Shown: positions 4,062 to 32,744 of the stretch, piece after piece | How the letters are laid out: each line of letters starts with the position of its first letter | How positions within the stretch are numbered: the first letter of the stretch is position 1 | Source of the DNA: a virus | Length of the DNA: 64,000 bases | Strand: one strand, 5' to 3' | Virus record (IMG/VR): IMGVR_UViG_3300043251_000023 | Coordinates: 1-64,000 of that record | Program-made: the position numbers and the translations under genes | The notes under the pieces: generated by a model | Database searches by the model: none | What the model saw: the letters and a program-made list of their open reading frames with translations, nothing else | What the model was told of the DNA's origin: nothing

Positions 4062-5469
4062 TGGTGGTCTTGAACCGCACGAAAAAGGCAATGTCGTCGT
4101 CTTTCCGTTCTCCGACCGAGGCGCGGTCGTCAACGAAAAATATCGCGCGCCGTCGAAGAAGTTTTGGCAGCGCGCCGGCGGCAAGCGAACGTTCTGGAAC
4201 GCCGACGCTTTAGACGATCCGGCACTCGAGGACGGTCGAATGCCGCTGGTGATCACCGAGGGAGAGATCGACGCCCTGTCGGCGATCGAGTGTGGTTTTC
4301 CGCTCACCGTATCGGTTCCGGACGGGGCGCCGGGAGTGCCGGAAGGCGAAGAACCTGAGAACCTCGCGCCGCTCGACCCGAAGGCAGAGGATTCCGGAAA
4401 GTTCGAGTTTCTGTGGAACAACCGCGAGCGACTGGCGCGCGTCAAAAGGTTCGTCCTTGCCGTCGATAACGACGGACCAGGCAGACGATTGGCGGCCGAA
4501 CTCATGCGCCGGCTTTCCGCAGCCCGCTGCTCGTTTGTGATCTATCCGGACGGCTGCAAGGATCTCAACGACGTGCTGACAAAGGGCGGCGCCGAAGAGG
4601 TCGCGCGCGTCATCAATGCGGCTAAACCGTATCCGGTTCGCGGTCTTTATCGACTTTCGGAATTTCCGCAAAACGGCGCGCTGCCGACTTTTAGAACCGG
4701 ATGGTCGACGCTCAACAACAATCTTCGCTTATTCGCTGGCGAGTTCATGGTCGTCACCGGCATTCCTGGACACGGCAAATCGACATGGGTTTTGAACTTG
4801 CTTGCTGACGCCGCCGATCTTCATGGATGGCGTTCGGCGATCTTTTCACCGGAGATGCCGACTGTTCCCCAGTTGCGAGACAAGTTGCGGCGCATCACGC
4901 TTCGAGGTCCGATCGAGGGGTCGAGCCACGATATGATCGCCGAGGCCGACGAATGGATTGAGCGAAATTTCGTCTTCATTGATGTCGACCCGACCGGGAA
5001 GGACGATGAAGAGTATGATCTGGATTGGGTGCTTGATCGCGCGACCGACGCTGTTCTGCGCGATGGCGTCCGTGTGCTGGTGATCGACCCTTGGAACGAG
5101 ATCGAACACGCCAAGCGGCGAGACGAGACGATGACGGATTACATCGGTCGCGCCATCCGCGCGATGAAGCGATTTGCGCGTCTATATGAAGTTGCCGTGA
5201 TCGTGGTCGCTCATCCAACCAAAGACGTCGCCAAGGAGGGAAAAAGCCGGCCGCCGACGCTTTATGACATCGAAGGTTCGGCACACTGGTTCAACAAGTG
5301 TGATCATGGAATCGTCGTCGACTGGCCGGATTCAAACATCGCCGAAAGCGTGATCCGCGTCGCAAAGGTTCGATTCGAGGAAAGCGGCGAACGCGGTCAG
5401 GTGCGGTTAAAGTTTGACAGGTATTCGGGCCGGTATGATCTGTTGATCCGCGAGGAGACGCCGCCATGA
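3952..5469 (+). CDS. TOPRIM primase + SF4 (DnaB/T7 gp4/Twinkle-like) helicase
   Basis: ITEGEIDALS and DNDGPG TOPRIM motifs, KDLND, Walker A TGIPGHGKS, VIDPWNE, VAHP; GGAGG RBS before ATG 3952. Confidence 0.92.
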   Translation: MTGKTLGALGVAAFEHRGISPETAGRYGIYTARRTDDGGLEPHEKGNVVVFPFSDRGAVVNEKYRAPSKKFWQRAGGKRTFWNADALDDPALEDGRMPLVITEGEIDALSAIECGFPLTVSVPDGAPGVPEGEEPENLAPLDPKAEDSGKFEFLWNNRERLARVKRFVLAVDNDGPGRRLAAELMRRLSAARCSFVIYPDGCKDLNDVLTKGGAEEVARVINAAKPYPVRGLYRLSEFPQNGALPTFRTGWSTLNNNLRLFAGEFMVVTGIPGHGKSTWVLNLLADAADLHGWRSAIFSPEMPTVPQLRDKLRRITLRGPIEGSSHDMIAEADEWIERNFVFIDVDPTGKDDEEYDLDWVLDRATDAVLRDGVRVLVIDPWNEIEHAKRRDETMTDYIGRAIRAMKRFARLYEVAVIVVAHPTKDVAKEGKSRPPTLYDIEGSAHWFNKCDHGIVVDWPDSNIAESVIRVAKVRFEESGERGQVRLKFDRYSGRYDLLIREETPP

Positions 5470-5616: not shown

Positions 5617-5835
5617 ATGGTCGCGATCAATGAATCCGTGATCTACAAAAGCATGGCGGGCGAGCCTTGGGATGCGACAGTCGTCCGCGTCGGTCCTCCG
5701 GGATATGTCGACGTCACGCTTTCCGGTCCGTTCCTTCGTGAGCCGTTCGAACTTCACGCCGTTCGGTGGTACGACGATCCGGACGAGCCGAAGTCCGGAG
5801 CGCGGCCATGCGGGAAACAATATTCAGGAAAATAG
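5617..5835 (+). CDS. hypothetical protein
   Basis: 72-aa ORF with GGAG RBS, in operon order. Confidence 0.45.
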   Translation: MVAINESVIYKSMAGEPWDATVVRVGPPGYVDVTLSGPFLREPFELHAVRWYDDPDEPKSGARPCGKQYSGK

Positions 5836-5847
5836 TTTTTCTGGGTC

Positions 5848-5877
5848 TTGACGGCGTTCGCTTAAAACGCTTACATA
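5848..5877 (+). promoter_or_regulatory. putative sigma70 promoter with an inverted repeat in the spacer
   Basis: TTGACG (5848-5853), then AT-rich TTACATAAAA from 5871; GCGTT-N7-AACGC dyad at 5854-5870. Confidence 0.5.
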
Positions 5878-5883
5878 AAATTT

Positions 5884-6096
5884 ATGACCGCAGCAGACGT
5901 GCGGAGAATGTTGCAACGGGCTTGTGAAAGAGCCGGGAGCCAACGCGCATGGGCGCGTGAGCATTCGGTTTCCGTTGTTTACGTCAATGACGTTTTAAGC
6001 GGAAACCGCGAGCCTGGCCCTGCGATTTTACAAGCGTTTGGGCTGGAAGCGGAGCGGCGCACCACATATAGGAAAAAAGGGCAACCAAATGGCTGA
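5884..6096 (+). CDS. Cro/Xre-like helix-turn-helix protein
   Basis: GSQRAWAREHSVSVVYVNDVLSGNREPGPAILQAFGL HTH pattern. Confidence 0.8.
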   Translation: MTAADVRRMLQRACERAGSQRAWAREHSVSVVYVNDVLSGNREPGPAILQAFGLEAERRTTYRKKGQPNG

Positions 6097-6718
6097 GCGC
6101 ACCATCGAGATTCCTGAAATCAAACTAGACCGGATCACCGTCAAGGTCGTTGGCACGTCGCCGCTGCTCACGAATCGGTTCGGCGAAAACGCCATTACGT
6201 CCATCGAAAACAAACAACAGAAAAAGGCCAAGGGCGTGAAGGAGGCGCGCGACCCCCACGCGGAGTTTGTCGAAAAACTGCATGTCATAAAAGCAGGTAA
6301 AAGCGATCTTGATGGCACGTTCGGCTATCCGTCCATCGGCATCAAAAAGTGTCTTGTCGTTGCCGGTGGGCGGTTCGCCGACGAAAAGATGACGCATCTG
6401 CGCGGCGCGATCAACATTCTCGGCAGCCTCATCGAAATCAAATCGCCACCCCCGACCATGCGGACGGACACCGTGCGCCTGCAGGGCGGCGTGACCAGCA
6501 TCGCCTATCGGCCGTCGTTCTGGCCGTGGGAAATGGAAATTCCGGTTGTGTATAACGCAGGCATCATCGGCCCCGCGCAAATCCTCAACCTTTTCCAGAT
6601 TGCCGGTTTTGCGGTAGGATTCGGCGCATGGCGCCCCGAACTTAACGGCGTGTTCGGCCAGTTCGTTTTGAAGGATTCCGCCGAAGTCCAGACGAAAGGA
6701 CGGGCCAAGGCGGGATAA
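6089..6718 (+). CDS. stand-alone RAMP/Cas7-like RNA-binding protein (Vipr-like guide-binding effector)
   Basis: N-terminal strand ITVKVVGTSPLL, YPSIGIKKCL, YRPSF.PWEMEIPV and a C-terminal glycine-rich loop AGFAVGFGAWRPELNGVFGQF; no other cas genes; directly followed by the pentamer array. Confidence 0.8.
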   Translation: MAERTIEIPEIKLDRITVKVVGTSPLLTNRFGENAITSIENKQQKKAKGVKEARDPHAEFVEKLHVIKAGKSDLDGTFGYPSIGIKKCLVVAGGRFADEKMTHLRGAINILGSLIEIKSPPPTMRTDTVRLQGGVTSIAYRPSFWPWEMEIPVVYNAGIIGPAQILNLFQIAGFAVGFGAWRPELNGVFGQFVLKDSAEVQTKGRAKAG

Positions 6719-7251
6719 AACACAAGAGCAGACTCGATTTGCTATGCGTTGAACAGACCTTAAGACAGTCAACGAGCATCTGTAGCGAAAAGAAAACAGG
6801 CGCATAGATCGGAGCGGACTCGACAACACTACACAACAAGAGAAAAGTTTAATCCATTTGCCAATAGAGGAGATTAGCAAACTAAGGACGCGACGAGAAT
6901 CGAGAACACGCGAAATGCTTTGTCCATTTGCTATAAGAAAAGCTGAGAGCAAATTTGCGTAGCCTAGCCTTGACACGCAAAGCATCGACGTGAGAACCGC
7001 TGAAATGAAAAGTTTAATTCCTTTGCCATCTGAATGGAGCCGACACGAGGCGAGGCGCGGAGAAAACCCGTGACGACAAATGAAAAGTTTAAACAATTTG
7101 GGCATTTGATAAGAAAAGCTTAGCTGTGACGACAATGGACAACCGAACAACCGAGAAGAAATGTTTTTGTTTGGCCCTTTATCAAAAGAGCCGATTTGCG
7201 TTGCAGAGACGCGCGTAGAAATGTCGTCACGACAATCGAGATGAAATGTCT
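6715..7251 (+). repeat. array of seven tracts of 5-nt units (NG[A/C] or AC[A/C] triplet + variable NN), mostly separated by conserved NGAAA-WGYTT + ~10-nt ...TTTG linkers
   Basis: by my count 71 of 91 core pentamers have G at position 2, 15 more start AC, and none has G at position 3; phase is unbroken over 6781-7090; linkers AATCCATTTG 6851, TGTCCATTTG 6921, AATTCCTTTG 7016, AAACAATTTG 7091, degenerate at 7167. Confidence 0.92.
6715..7251 (+). ncRNA. putative multi-guide precursor RNA (gapped-code guides) for the adjacent RAMP protein
   Basis: the variable dinucleotides of six tracts decode to conserved transposase or mobile-element protein motifs; transcription and processing are not shown. 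Confidence 0.75.
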
Positions 7252-8307
7252 ATATCGATCAAAGAGTATTTTGCGCTGGCTGGAACGTCGTTCACCAACG
7301 ACGATGCGCGGGTTATCGGCCCGGTTCTCCAAGAGATTGCCACCGATGGTAGCGTGACCGCAGAGGCGGTCGTGCAGGCCGCGCATTCCGCAAATAGCCC
7401 ACTGCGCAGCTATTTCGAGTGGGACGACAAAAAGGCTGCTCACCAATATCGAGTCGGCCAAGCCAACTACATGATAAACGCTGTCCGCGTGCGCTTTGTC
7501 AGCGCCGGCAAGGAATATGCGACGCGCGCTTATCGGGTTGTCACCAAGCAGTACGAAGGCGACGCGGCCGGATGGGATGAAGACGAGCGATCCGTCGAAA
7601 TCGTGCGGTCGCCGAACGATGAAATCTTGGCCGCGCTGCGGGAGGTTGATGCGTGGCGCGTCAAATATGCTCACCTTTCCACCTTCCAGAATGCCAAATC
7701 GTTTTTGGTGCCGATCTTCAACCAGATTGCCGAGTTCCGCGCGGATTTGGCTGGCAAAGAGGCTATGCCCATAGACGGGGCGCTCGGCGAGCTTACCCAA
7801 TGGGTTCAAAAATATGGCGACGCCGATGCCGTGTCCGCCTCTGCTCTCCTTGGCGAGCACATTCACTACATGGTGGAGGCGATCAACGAGTCCTGGGAAA
7901 ACTTTGGACGCTTCAAGCATGATCCGGCATTGCGTCGGTCTCTGGTGGAGGAAGAAAACGAGGAATTGCGCGAGCGCGTCCGGATTTTGGAGGAGATGTT
8001 AAACGGGAAGGAAAGTCTGCCGCCGGAATTGAGGTTGACCGCAAGCGAGGAGCGCGTCGTGTCAGCCCTGCTGTCGCGAGACGTTATGACCAAAGAGGCC
8101 ATTTCGATGGCGCTCTATTCCGACCGCCCCGATGTTGCGCCAGAATTAAAAATTGTCGACGTATTCGTGTGCAAAATCAGAGCGAAGATTGAATCGCACG
8201 GGTTGAAAATCGAAACGCATTGGGGACGCGGCTATTCGATGCCGGCGGAGAGTAAGCAAGAGCTGCGCGGCATGATCGCCGCGCGCAAAGAGGCCGCAGC
8301 GGCATGA
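7246..8307 (+). CDS. RAMP-associated partner domain fused to an OmpR/PhoB (CtrA-like) winged-helix DNA-binding domain
   Basis: N-terminal VTAEAVVQAA...SPLRSYFEWDDKKAAHQYR motif; C-terminal LTASE...LYSDRPDVAPELKIVDVFVCKIRAKI...IETHWGRGY. Confidence 0.75.
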   Translation: MSISIKEYFALAGTSFTNDDARVIGPVLQEIATDGSVTAEAVVQAAHSANSPLRSYFEWDDKKAAHQYRVGQANYMINAVRVRFVSAGKEYATRAYRVVTKQYEGDAAGWDEDERSVEIVRSPNDEILAALREVDAWRVKYAHLSTFQNAKSFLVPIFNQIAEFRADLAGKEAMPIDGALGELTQWVQKYGDADAVSASALLGEHIHYMVEAINESWENFGRFKHDPALRRSLVEEENEELRERVRILEEMLNGKESLPPELRLTASEERVVSALLSRDVMTKEAISMALYSDRPDVAPELKIVDVFVCKIRAKIESHGLKIETHWGRGYSMPAESKQELRGMIAARKEAAAA

Positions 8308-9038
8308 AACCTTTGCGTCGATTTGCAGATCATGGCGACGCCGGCGCGCCTTACTCACTGGCCCCGTCGCATATCGCCGCGCGGCTTGGCACAAGCCTTT
8401 ATCGCGAAGGGCGCCTAGGCTTCCCCAAGGGCAAAACGCTCCTAACCAGCGGCCATAACAATCGCAAGATCGGCGCCGTCATCCAAAAGGGTAGATGGAA
8501 GGGCTACCCGGTCTTTACCTTGACCCTGGAGGAACGCGCCACCTGTCCGCGCTCATGCGCGCATTGGCTCGATTGCTACGGTAACAAGATGAACTGGCCT
8601 ACTCGATGGATGAATGACGCGGACCTGATACCGACAATCGGTAGGAACCTATCGGATTTATCGAGAAACGTCCCGAATTTCGTTATCCGGCTTCATGTCC
8701 TTGGCGACTTTTATTCAGTCGCCTACGTCGAGCAATGGGCGCGATGGCTCGATGAATTTTCCGGCTTGCACGTCTACGGCTACACGGCTTGGCAGCCGGA
8801 TACTGCGATCGGTCGCACCGTCGCCGCACTCGCGGAAGCCCGCTGGGATCGTTTTGCGGTTCGCACGTCGAACGGCGTCGTGGCCGAACGCACGACTGCC
8901 ACGATCTACGAGGCCAACGCCAGCGGCCAAATAAATGGCGGCACGGTCTGTCCGGTACAGACAGGAAAAACCGAATGTTGCGCGACGTGTGCTTTATGCT
9001 GGCAGACGCAGAAGCGCATCATCTTCCTGGCGCACTAG
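8304..9038 (+). CDS. GP88-like Cys-rich phage protein
   Basis: TCPRSCAHWLDCY, IRLHVLGDFYS, C-terminal CPVQ...CCATCALCW. Confidence 0.6.
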   Translation: MKPLRRFADHGDAGAPYSLAPSHIAARLGTSLYREGRLGFPKGKTLLTSGHNNRKIGAVIQKGRWKGYPVFTLTLEERATCPRSCAHWLDCYGNKMNWPTRWMNDADLIPTIGRNLSDLSRNVPNFVIRLHVLGDFYSVAYVEQWARWLDEFSGLHVYGYTAWQPDTAIGRTVAALAEARWDRFAVRTSNGVVAERTTATIYEANASGQINGGTVCPVQTGKTECCATCALCWQTQKRIIFLAH

Positions 9039-18536: not shown

Positions 18537-19583
18537 TCCCTGAACAGCAGGAAGAACCATGAGAACCGATGAGGCAATGAAGGTCGAGACCATTGCGCAG
18601 CTTCACGATACGGCCTGCCATGAGGTCGCGCGCCTCACTGAGCTCCGCGAATCAGACGCGAAGGTGATCGCGGCGTTGAGGGCAACAATTCTGAACATCG
18701 GCGATCTTGCGGACAAGGCCACTCATGGCGGCGGTACTACTTTCTTGTATGGCGTCACACTGCGGGATATTATTTTCCGATGCGCTACGGCGTTATCGCC
18801 GACAGGTGAGCAGACAGCAGGGAGAAGCAATGATGTTTAAGGACGTGCTCTTTATCGACAATCCTCGTTCGTGGCCGCCGTGTGAGCCAGCGTCCGATCC
18901 GGACTGGATCAAGCACGTTCATTGTGACAGCGCTCGATGGCATACGCCGTCATGGGGCTTGTATCATAGCTGGCGCGGTGAGCGCGCGATTGAGCGATGT
19001 TCGCAGGCTTGTTGTATCGTCAACAAAATAGCCGCTGAACAACTTGCTGAAATCGGCATAAAGGCCACCTTTGTCACACACAAAGACGGCAAGATACTTC
19101 CGCGTTCATAAGCGATTAGCCGGGAGAACCCATGAGCACAGCAGAACAGATTGTTAATCGAGCGCTCCAAAAAGTCGGTCGCGATCCTCGCATCGATCCC
19201 AAGCCAGGTGATATCGTGCGCTCGGATTATCCGTCGATTGGCGAGCGCCATGTAATCCATGCGAACGAATGTGGCGTTTCCTATTGGCGCATTCGGCCTA
19301 ACGGTAGGCGATATGATGGGTACTGCCTCCCCGGCATTTGGCAAAAATGGTGCCGAGGCCATAGGGCCGCTATCATCCAAACAGGCGGTTAATGGCCAAT
19401 AAGCACGGAGAAAATCATGGGCTACAAAATGTCGCTCTATTCTTGCACCTGCCGGATGAACTCGGTCAATTCGGCGTCGCTCGATCCGCCCGAGCCGATC
19501 CTTGATCCGTGGTGCCCGATCCACGGCAAAGACCCTGATGTGGAATACGAAAAACGACGCGACGACGCGCTGTGGGATCGGAA

Positions 19584-30822: not shown

Positions 30823-32744
30823 AAGCTGCCGGGATTTTGCTCGTATCGATGAATGGAAACGCTTTGTTTCTCCGGCGGACCGCGAGCGCGCCCGATTGCC
30901 CCGCGTGTTGGGATTTTCCCGGTGGCGGCCAAGAAGGCGACGAGACCGCCGAGCAGACCGCGATCCGCGAGACCCGCGAGGAGATCGGCCACGTCCCCGA
31001 CGGCATCAGAATCCTCCACACCCGAACCCGATCCGGCTCCGCGCTGCAAGGCGTGGCTGGTCCCGGCGCGTCGCCGCTTGGCAACCCTGTTGACGGCGGC
31101 GCGCCGACGGCCCCTTCGATTGTCCCAGCGATGCCGGTCGATGTGGACTACACGACGTTCCTGCAAAAAGTGACGAACGAGTTCGTGCCGGAGCTCAACG
31201 ACGAGCACGACGGCTACGCCTGGTCGCCGATCACGGCGCCGCCCGAACCGCTGCATCCCGGTTGCCGGATCGCGCTCGAGCGTCTGTCGATGGACGAACT
31301 CGACGTCGCGCGGGCGATGGTCGACGGTCGCCTCGTCTCGCCGCAACGCTATGAAAACGTGACTTTGTGGGCGATTCGCATAACCGGGACGGGTGGTTCG
31401 TTCCGGCCCAAGGTCGAGGAATTTGTCTACCGCGATGCCGACATCCACCTGACCGAACGGATGCTGGCCCGCTGCAACGGCCTCCCGGTGATCTTCAAAC
31501 ACCCCGCCAAGGCGCTCCTGAACAGCGAGGAGTTCGCTAATCGTATTGTGGGGACCATTTTTTTGCCGTATGTTGCCGGCGATGAGGTCTGGGGCATCGC
31601 CAAAATCTACGACGATGAAACCAACCGGCTCTTAGACGAGGAGAACCTTTCCACCTCACCCGGCGTGAACTTCAAGGACTTCAAGGTCAATCGAAGTCTG
31701 CGCATGGAGGATGGTTCGAAGGTTCTCATCGAAGGCAAACCGAGTCTCGTCGACCACGTCGCGATTTGCGAGTTGGGCGTCTGGGACAAGGGCGGCGACC
31801 CGAGCGGCATTCGTTCCGAATCACGAGAGGACACAGCGATGGCTGACGAAGCGAAAAAGGAAGAGGCCAAGGACGATGCCGCGAAGAAGGATGCGGTCGC
31901 AGAGCAGCCCAAGATGGACGCCAAGAAAGACGCTGCCAAGGACGACGCCGCCCGCAAGGACGCGGACGCCGGCAAGTCCTTAGACGAAAAGCTCTCCCAC
32001 GTTCTCGATGCCGTCACCGGGTGCATGGACGCCGTGAAACGGGTCGACGCCCGGATGGACGCGATGGACGAGGAGAAGAAGAAAGCCGACGCGGCCAAGA
32101 AGGACGAGTTCCCGGACAAGAAGGAAGAAGCCGAAAAGACCGCCGCCGACAAGGCGAAGAAGGACGCGGCCGACAAGGAGGAGGAAGAAAAAAAGAAGGC
32201 CGACGCCGCCAAGAAAGACGAGGAAGACAAGGCGAAAGCCGATACCGCCGGTCTGGGCGACCGGATCGCCGCCGTCGAGCGCGCCGTCAAGGCGACCGAC
32301 GCGAAGATCATGCCGATCCCGGACGACGATCATTCCCGCCTCGCCGACGCTTGGGCAATCGCTGACGATGCCTGCCGGGCGCTGGGGATGAACGGCCCGC
32401 GCGCGATGCCGGGCGAGACCTCCGCGCAGTTCCGGCGCCGGGTGGTCAAGCTCCTCAAGCCGCACAGCGCGACCTGGAAGGACGTCGACATCGCCACGGC
32501 CGCCTATGCCGACGAAGCGATGTTCGCCGTCGTCGAGAAGCAGGTCCTCACCGACGCTGCGAAGGCGGCGCGCGACCCGGCCAATGTCGCCGGCGACCAG
32601 CTCCGCATGATCGAGCGCAAGGCGGACGGCCACACGATTCGCGAGTTCGTCGGTCGGCCGGCTGCCTGGATGAACCAGTTTGCCGGGCCGGTTCAGCTCC
32701 GCGGCGAGGGCAAGTTCCTTACCGACAATCTCGGCAAGAACTGA
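30819..32744 (+). CDS. NUDIX domain + DUF2213-like prohead protease + scaffold fusion
   Basis: Nudix box PGGGQEGDETAEQTAIRETREEIG; HP...STSP...DHVAIC.GVWD; D/A/K-rich scaffold tail. Confidence 0.85.
   Translation: MKAAGILLVSMNGNALFLRRTASAPDCPACWDFPGGGQEGDETAEQTAIRETREEIGHVPDGIRILHTRTRSGSALQGVAGPGASPLGNPVDGGAPTAPSIVPAMPVDVDYTTFLQKVTNEFVPELNDEHDGYAWSPITAPPEPLHPGCRIALERLSMDELDVARAMVDGRLVSPQRYENVTLWAIRITGTGGSFRPKVEEFVYRDADIHLTERMLARCNGLPVIFKHPAKALLNSEEFANRIVGTIFLPYVAGDEVWGIAKIYDDETNRLLDEENLSTSPGVNFKDFKVNRSLRMEDGSKVLIEGKPSLVDHVAICELGVWDKGGDPSGIRSESREDTAMADEAKKEEAKDDAAKKDAVAEQPKMDAKKDAAKDDAARKDADAGKSLDEKLSHVLDAVTGCMDAVKRVDARMDAMDEEKKKADAAKKDEFPDKKEEAEKTAADKAKKDAADKEEEEKKKADAAKKDEEDKAKADTAGLGDRIAAVERAVKATDAKIMPIPDDDHSRLADAWAIADDACRALGMNGPRAMPGETSAQFRRRVVKLLKPHSATWKDVDIATAAYADEAMFAVVEKQVLTDAAKAARDPANVAGDQLRMIERKADGHTIREFVGRPAAWMNQFAGPVQLRGEGKFLTDNLGKN

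Follow-up and report, generated by a model that had tools for sequence, protein, structure and literature searches.

A VIPR module with a variant pentamer scaffold in a soil phage and the match of its guides to insertion-sequence transposase motifs

Genes and array of the module

The DNA analyzed here (the window) comprises positions 1–64,000, i.e., the first 64 kb, of the 73,543-bp virus record IMGVR_UViG_3300043251_000023. The record stems from a soil phage, has direct terminal repeats, and its 73.5-kb genome is complete according to the completeness estimate. It carries a module made up of a vipr gene (6089–6718), an array of seven vrRNA tracts (6715–7246) and a winged-helix accessory gene, vap (7246–8307), the guides of which are compared below with insertion sequence (IS) transposases. 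VIPR (Viral Interference Programmable Repeat) was described in 2026 (bioRxiv 10.64898/2026.04.26.720920). In the reported systems, a vrRNA built from GGY/NN pentamers is coated by Vipr protomers; its NN dinucleotides form base pairs with DNA, leaving out one target base in three, and competing mobile elements are thereby silenced at the level of transcription (bioRxiv 10.64898/2026.04.26.720920, 10.64898/2026.04.26.720927, 10.64898/2026.10.15.759431). The features of the locus are listed in Table 1.

Table 1. Coordinates of the module, its guide tracts and associated features (positions in the window)
Feature	Position	Strand	Remarks
Small helix-turn-helix (HTH) gene	5884..6096	+	Upstream of vipr; weak HTH matches only; outside the conserved module
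vipr	6089..6718	+	209-aa RAMP-fold protein (predicted), G-loop GFGAWRPELNGVFGQF; PDB, profile, Foldseek and PHROGs matches
Tract A1, 13 units	6715..6779	+	Begins inside the vipr stop codon; antisense reading HRNLGVTYKTAWF of IS1595 transposases
Tract A2, 12 units	6786..6845	+	Sense reading KKGISALQL(Q/H)(R)N of IS1595 transposases; tail 6846–6865
Tract B, 10 units	6866..6915	+	Without found target; tail 6916–6935
Tract C, 15 units	6936..7010	+	Sense, over K-T-A-[WF]-[VF]-L-x-H-K-I-R-E-A of IS1595 transposases; tail 7011–7030
Tract D, 11 units	7031..7085	+	Without found target; tail 7086–7106
Tract E, 11 units	7107..7161	+	Sense reading Y-N-F-C-R-I-H-E-T, over Y-N-[FW]-C-R-V-H-E-T of IS1-like transposases; tail 7162–7186
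Tract F, 12 units	7187..7246	+	Antisense, M-x-M-R-R-F-T-R-L-T-N-A of IS1-like transposases; tail overlaps the vap start codon
vap-like accessory gene	7246..8307	+	353 aa; C-terminal OmpR/CtrA-type winged helix, residues 261–331
IS1595 target site motif			KKGISALQLQRN

A preliminary description of the locus, made from its letters, had proposed a lone RAMP-like gene with a G-rich loop and a partner gene, and both were found where it placed them. The order vipr, pentamer region, vap homologue is common to the related loci L001–L006. Homology to L003 and L004 covers 6088–6766 and 7078–8300 and is thus bounded by the exact vipr start and the vap stop, which defines vipr-array-vap as the unit.

The sole PDB sequence match of the 209-aa protein (E ≤ 10) was 36pp_D, “SUSP1 Vipr protein,” with a phmmer E-value of 7.3e-4. 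A profile built from 24 homologues improved this match to 4.9e-6, the similarity amounting to about 22–29 bits only. The G-loop GxGxWRP aligns with G-V-G-D-W-R-P of SUSP1 Vipr. The AlphaFold (AF2) model of the protein has a pLDDT of 75.7 and a pTM of 0.70. When this model was compared with known structures using Foldseek, a check the preliminary description had called for, 53 PDB chains were matched at E ≤ 0.001 (best E 1.4e-5), and the chains listed were all CRISPR RAMP backbone subunits (Csm3, Cmr4, Cas7, Cas7-11). Scans of Pfam and NCBIfam gave no match, and in PHROGs the protein falls into phrog_4652, function not known. On the sequence, profile and model matches we identify the product of 6089–6718 as a RAMP-fold Vipr homologue, in accordance with the RAMP/Cas7-like protein proposed earlier.

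The search for homologues returned 156 proteins, none of them named. Relatives of the locus lie in two Lichenihabitans metagenome-assembled genomes (MAGs) and in five IMG/VR contigs. Homologues were also found in 39 phage records. Those in 27 Mycobacterium and 5 Gordonia phage records are 32–34% identical and annotated “hypothetical protein,” and they likely mark VIPR loci in actinophages.

The 353-aa product of the accessory gene matches Pfam Trans_reg_C above the cut-off (E 2.1e-8, 34.5 bits) and PHROGs families phrog_15946 and phrog_31800; a PDB sequence search with it gave no match. The gene is syntenic downstream of the array in L001–L006. The module contains no nuclease, as the preliminary description had noted, and the partner is a winged-helix protein. 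A DNA-binding vap points to VIPR types II, VI or VII, as far as the types are defined in the available text of the VIPR reports. The last guide's tail runs into vap, covering the start and first codons (7242–7262; MSISIKEYFA), and this N-terminus is kept in relatives.

Between the two genes lies an array with a period of 5 nt and a length of about 530 nt. Identity at lag 5 over 6719–7245 is 0.387, compared to a mean of 0.265 (sd 0.0185, maximum 0.337) in 1000 shuffles. Unit positions were counted in the register of the preliminary description over the 70 units of tracts A2–F. Position 1 is A in 35, C in 16, T in 14 and G in 5 units; position 2 is G in 56, C in 13 and A in 1; position 3 is A in 51, C in 18, T in 1 and never G. 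Positions 4 and 5 are near random, with entropies of 1.91 and 1.86 bits. The scaffold consensus is H-G-[A/C], giving units of the form H-G-[A/C]-N-N, with AC[A/C] as an alternative, and 69/70 units start with NG or AC. Thus, the earlier account of pentamers with constrained positions 1–3, free positions 4–5 and a non-GGY scaffold is confirmed. Seven runs of at least six conforming units occur in 6720–7221, compared to four (+) and two (−) in the rest of the 73.5-kb genome and to a mean of 1.8 (maximum 5) in the shuffled genome. The 5-nt phase is maintained over almost the entire array and shifts by +1 at two points. The motif NGAAA-WGYTT closes five tracts (A2, B, C, D, E), as previously noted, and leads into a short linker that contains TTTG. 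No Rfam family matched 5700–7400, so there is no hammerhead between the guides.

Two further observations concern the array. Scaffold-conforming runs outside it, such as 10 pentamers at 31034–31083 (−) and 8 pentamers at 19113–19152 (+), are near the chance level of the genome. The word TGACGACAA[A/T], seen by eye, is repeated within tract D (7071–7082), tract E (7125–7136) and tract F (7226–7237), as well as in their L003 homologues, and could reflect either a protein site or the remains of a tract duplication.

Gapped guides and transposase motifs

Guides were read by joining unit positions 4–5 with one free base between successive pairs. Both strands were scanned, and guides with shuffled unit order served as controls. 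The IS1595 sample consisted of 30 transposase loci drawn from 61 genomes belonging to the same order as one MAG, and a separate search with the A2 pattern relaxed at two bases yielded one viral locus (L038) and 40 metagenome loci. The IS1-like sample consisted of 15 loci, for which tract F was extended to 12 units.

At the sequence level, five of the seven tracts spell invariant motifs of IS1595 (A1, A2, C) and IS1-like (E, F) transposases, on either strand, and in all five the skipped base is the codon wobble position. The preliminary description had listed gapped motif matches in six tracts, with the skip always on wobble. Both statements are verified for these five tracts but not for tract D, whose matches mostly have the skip off wobble.

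In the 30-locus sample A2 scored 22/24, a score reached by 0/200 shuffles (maximum 19). Over the 41 fetched loci it scored 24/24 in 16, 23/24 in 17 and 22/24 in 8. Each of the 41 sites is in frame and falls on KKG[IM]SA[LH]QL[QH]R[NK] of transposase open reading frames (ORFs) of ∼320 aa. One of these ORFs is a bona fide IS1595 transposase by its NCBIfam score, with 212.5 bits against a cut-off of 75 for the IS1595 model. The A1 site immediately adjoins that of A2. The best A1 match, 22/26 in L054, was reached by 0/100 shuffles (control maximum 20), and the tract is kept in L003 and L004, with 22/24 each. In these genes the A2 site is followed, 51–54 nt further downstream, by the C site, and C matches occupy the same gene position in many loci. 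The best of them, 22/30 in L030, was reached by 1/200 shuffles in the order sample and by 0/100 in another sample. The sites of A2, A1 and C tile one stretch of ∼35 codons of the IS1595 gene.

In the IS1-like sample, tract F scored highest in L097, with 23/24, and five more loci gave 21/24; 0/200 shuffles reach its score, with a control maximum of 18. Tract E scored 17/22, which 6/200 shuffles reach in the 15 loci and 0/100 in a four-locus sample. Its five best rows are all on the same motif, at four distinct places. The E site lies 89 nt downstream of the F site in the same IS1-like gene, and the NN bases of E are identical in L003. The assignments of C and E are supported more by position and reading frame than by score.

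The reading was further tested in a grid of five registers and four skip lengths. Only positions 4–5 with a 1-nt skip reach 22/26 (A1), 24/24 (A2) and 23/24 (F); all other combinations gave at most 20/26, 20/24 and 19/24, respectively. Taken together, the natural targets lie well above the shuffled controls (0/100 for A1, 0/200 for A2 and F), and the matches of five of the seven tracts support the earlier proposal that the guides act mainly against IS transposases.

Guides of the relatives match the same two families. In L003 three guides beat all controls (22/24 and 27/34 on IS1595, 22/26 on IS1-like), in L004 two do (22/24 on IS1595, 22/26 on IS1-like), and in L006 one does (21/26 on IS1595). 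Several guides of L003, L004 and L006 match other motifs of these transposases. No self-target was found: in the 73.5 kb of the phage itself, tracts A2–F scored at best no higher than the shuffled-order controls.

These results also bear on the idea that the pentamer region is a DNA-level feature, e.g., a set of winged-helix binding sites or origin-like iterons, with transposase matches arising from composition. The missing Rfam family, tails without a predicted fold and the recurring TGACGACAA[A/T] word, which could be a protein site, would fit such a feature. Composition would, however, not be expected to favor one register and one skip only, to give in-frame, wobble-skipped matches in 41/41 loci or to leave the A1, A2 and F scores out of reach of every shuffled-order control. 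The adjoining protein is moreover a Vipr homologue. In the relative L007, a viral contig with a Vipr of 37% identity, the corresponding place directly 3′ of the gene (4328–4490) is taken by a long canonical GGC/NN array. We therefore regard a DNA-level feature as very improbable.

The scaffold and its place among known systems

The scaffold differs between relatives. G at position 1 is rare in the window (5/88 units), in L003 (3/69) and in L004 (6/60). Position 3 is mainly A in these three loci (54/88, 48/69 and 37/60, respectively) and mainly C in L006, L002, L001 and L005. For SUSP1 Vipr, H17 and D177 are described as reading G1 and R138 and W178 as reading G2, with R179 forming part of the Y3 pocket (bioRxiv 10.64898/2026.04.26.720927). 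We aligned the window protein with those of L001–L007. In the window and L001–L006, N takes the place of H17 and A or S that of D177 (N29 and A180 in the window protein itself), whereas L007 has H and E there. No change is seen at the positions corresponding to R138, W178 and R179 in this small sample. Both residues that read G1 in SUSP1 are replaced, in keeping with the lost G of the first scaffold position. Although the aligned sequences are few, the lost G1 readers offer a concrete explanation for the fixation of the middle G alone.

The vipr-array-vap cassette is mosaic, as its flanks are unrelated though the Vipr proteins of L003 and L004 are 91–98% identical. The arrays of L003 and L004 have the same architecture with other NN content. 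In L003 four mid-array guides (tracts A2–D) are exchanged, and the first and the last two tracts are kept.

The system most like the present one is the type II VIPR of Escherichia phage SUSP1 (Vipr, vrRNAs and Vap1). Both are phage-encoded, with one small RAMP protein that has a G-loop, and the G2 contacts (R138 and W178 equivalents) and the R179 equivalent are conserved here. Both have a pentamer array with free bases 4–5, a 1-nt skip on wobble and targets on both strands, as judged here from natural sequence matches. Both have a DNA-binding accessory gene, no nuclease and no self-targeting. In contrast to the G-G-Y scaffold of SUSP1, the scaffold here is H-G-[A/C], with position 1 depleted of G and position 3 mostly A, and the G1 readers are replaced, H17 by N and D177 by A. 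Unlike in SUSP1, the array is situated between vipr and vap, its last tail overlapping the vap start, and the targets are IS transposase genes and not a satellite.

Non-GGY scaffolds are not new. Repeats of the forms NNNGG, YNNNG and NNNNG have been reported (bioRxiv 10.64898/2026.04.26.720920), as have 21 clusters with GAC/NN, CAC/NN, WGT/NN or TGH/NN units adjoining Vipr-like folds (bioRxiv 10.64898/2026.10.21.760802). The array described here resembles them in its period of 5, its fixed or half-fixed trinucleotide followed by free NN, and its position beside a Vipr-like fold. The idea behind H-G-[A/C], a G in the middle flanked by degenerate positions, is also that of TGH, WGT and YNNNG. 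The array differs from the repeats named in the main texts by the preference for A at position 3 and by the AC[A/C] alternative, although the clade may figure in the supplements. The main text on non-canonical arrays gives no targets for them (10.64898/2026.04.26.720920, 10.64898/2026.10.21.760802).

Cas7/Csm3 backbone filaments of class 1 CRISPR systems share the RRM/RAMP fold, thumb and G-loop with the protein and are its best structural matches. The locus differs from these systems in its 5-nt instead of 6-nt period and in its gapped pairing code. Neither CRISPR repeats in a repeat-spacer array nor further cas genes were found, and 5700–7400 is without Rfam match.

Thus, we conclude that the locus is a genuine VIPR module and hence no new kind of system: it belongs to a family published already in 2026, and H-G-[A/C] is a variant and not the first of its kind, because non-GGY repeats had been reported before. 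The failure to conform to GGY does not exclude membership, because the main text of the original report admits “a related consensus” as scaffold (bioRxiv 10.64898/2026.04.26.720920). The earlier suggestion of a relationship to VIPR with a different scaffold triplet is accordingly upheld by the Vipr homologue, the non-GGY array and the targets with a 1-nt skip. Three features mark it as a variant clade: its scaffold, the loss of the G1 readers and its short tails (∼15–25 nt, A/U-rich).

Proposed function, competing readings and neighboring genes

We consider it probable, on this analysis, that the locus is a VIPR module whose guides read IS1595 and IS1-like transposase motifs and silence these genes by binding. 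By homology with SUSP1 VIPR, Vipr protomers would polymerize along each transcript, one per pentamer, each holding the scaffold H-G-[A/C] and presenting bases 4–5. These bases would pair with double-stranded DNA, skipping every third target base, in an R-loop or triplex as suggested by SUSP1. The bound complex would then block transcription of transposase genes in the infected cell. Silencing by binding is inferred because the module is without a nuclease. The likely benefit, and the one we prefer, is that insertion sequences are kept quiet or out of replicating phage DNA.

Several results weigh against this function or parts of it. The grid scores of C (22/30) and E (17/22) are not set apart from those of other registers. 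No match to C with ≤3 mismatches was found in 301 genomes of the order of G001, and its 9-unit core had no exact match in viral contigs. Tract E likewise had no exact match in viral contigs, and its approximate search in 151 genomes gave three matches, none in transposases, compared to one control match. The best NCBIfam model for the IS1-like family, IS1, scored 68.5 bits, under the cut-off of 100. Unlike the ∼40-nt pseudoknot tail of SUSP1, the short tails here have no predicted fold; for five of them the folding prediction was no better than for shuffles. Substitutions between homologous tracts (28 in the scaffold vs. 11 in the guides, p 0.088) show a trend only. A sigma-70-type promoter scan of 5700–8400 found no site, and the promoter assigned to the operon-like order in the preliminary description is therefore not substantiated. 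Finally, protection of a prophage is not an obvious benefit, because the phage record has terminal repeats and no tyrosine integrase was found in its 73.5 kb.

Tracts B and D, to which no target could be assigned, also weigh against it. Tract B, with 11 or 10 units, had no exact match in viral contigs. In 201 genomes it gave four matches with ≤2 mismatches vs. six control matches, and in IS loci it gave no signal. Tract D also had no exact match in viral contigs, and a target could not be picked from its genome matches, which are scattered over unrelated genes with the skip mostly off wobble. With 11 units and ≤3 mismatches it matched in 6/121 genomes vs. 0 controls, and with 10 units (from 7026) and ≤2 mismatches in 15/251 genomes vs. 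4 control matches. The small “RRFPPPW” protein proposed earlier as the target of this tract was not found.

A separate observation on the 10-unit tract D is a 20/20 match at 1501–1529 of L115, in a gene for a ProV-like ABC-transporter ATPase, over the motif FALFPWLTVEEN and with the skip on codon position 2. This match could be due to chance or be a real host target.

The module could also be a VIPR system for which transposase genes are not the end-point. The guides might then mark IS-carrying competitors (plasmids, prophages, satellites) or exploit the many IS copies of the host chromosome as landing sites, e.g., for host shut-off or titration, comparable to the REP-directed solo vrRNAs reported for SUSP1 satellites. 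The VIPR targets published so far comprise satellites and prophages as well as other VIPR loci and REP repeats (bioRxiv 10.64898/2026.04.26.720920, 10.64898/2026.10.15.759431), and one A2 match lies on the viral contig L038. IS are indeed multi-copy, with 29 PF12762 matches in genome G008, and the apparently non-integrating phage would have a weaker motive for prophage protection. Most A2 targets, however, are on short or cellular contigs, in complete transposase ORFs of ∼320–350 aa, and in the longer loci L066, L071 and L073 no other guide matches the neighborhood of the IS. The guides moreover lie on the most conserved coding motifs, which fits recognition of a gene family rather than of a single carrier. 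We thus find it unlikely that the transposase genes are only a mark or a landing site.

Returning to silencing of the transposase genes themselves, we tentatively suggest as a possibility that the phage, virulent by appearance, deploys its VIPR array to silence transposons at the level of whole families, with guides against invariant IS1595 and IS1-like motifs on both strands. If so, wobble skipping would let one guide cover thousands of diverged IS copies, the conflict between phages and insertion sequences would be a new arena for RNA-guided silencing, and some process would have to write or select guides from protein-coding targets. VIPR has so far been linked with GGY scaffolds and with the conflicts of phages with satellites and prophages. 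IS transposases as a class of VIPR targets were not found in the literature searched, and the supplements of the VIPR papers may list such targets or the present clade. That IS transposases are the main recognizable targets in four related phages suggests RNA-guided policing of transposons with family-wide recognition by wobble skipping. The directly readable natural targets, including those matched at 24/24, provide an independent check of the 1-nt skip outside E. coli and Pseudomonas. The joint loss of G1 and its readers would show how the scaffold code evolves in protein and RNA, and it offers a testable rule for re-engineering scaffold specificity.

The small HTH gene upstream of vipr had been included in the operon-like unit. 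No homologue of it was detected in L001–L007 by tblastn, and the flanks of the cassette, this gene included, are unrelated in L003 and L004. As homology to these closest relatives begins at 6088–6090, exactly at the vipr start, the gene is not supported as part of the system. The neighboring genes of the locus are a primase-helicase gene, the HTH gene and a GP88-like gene.

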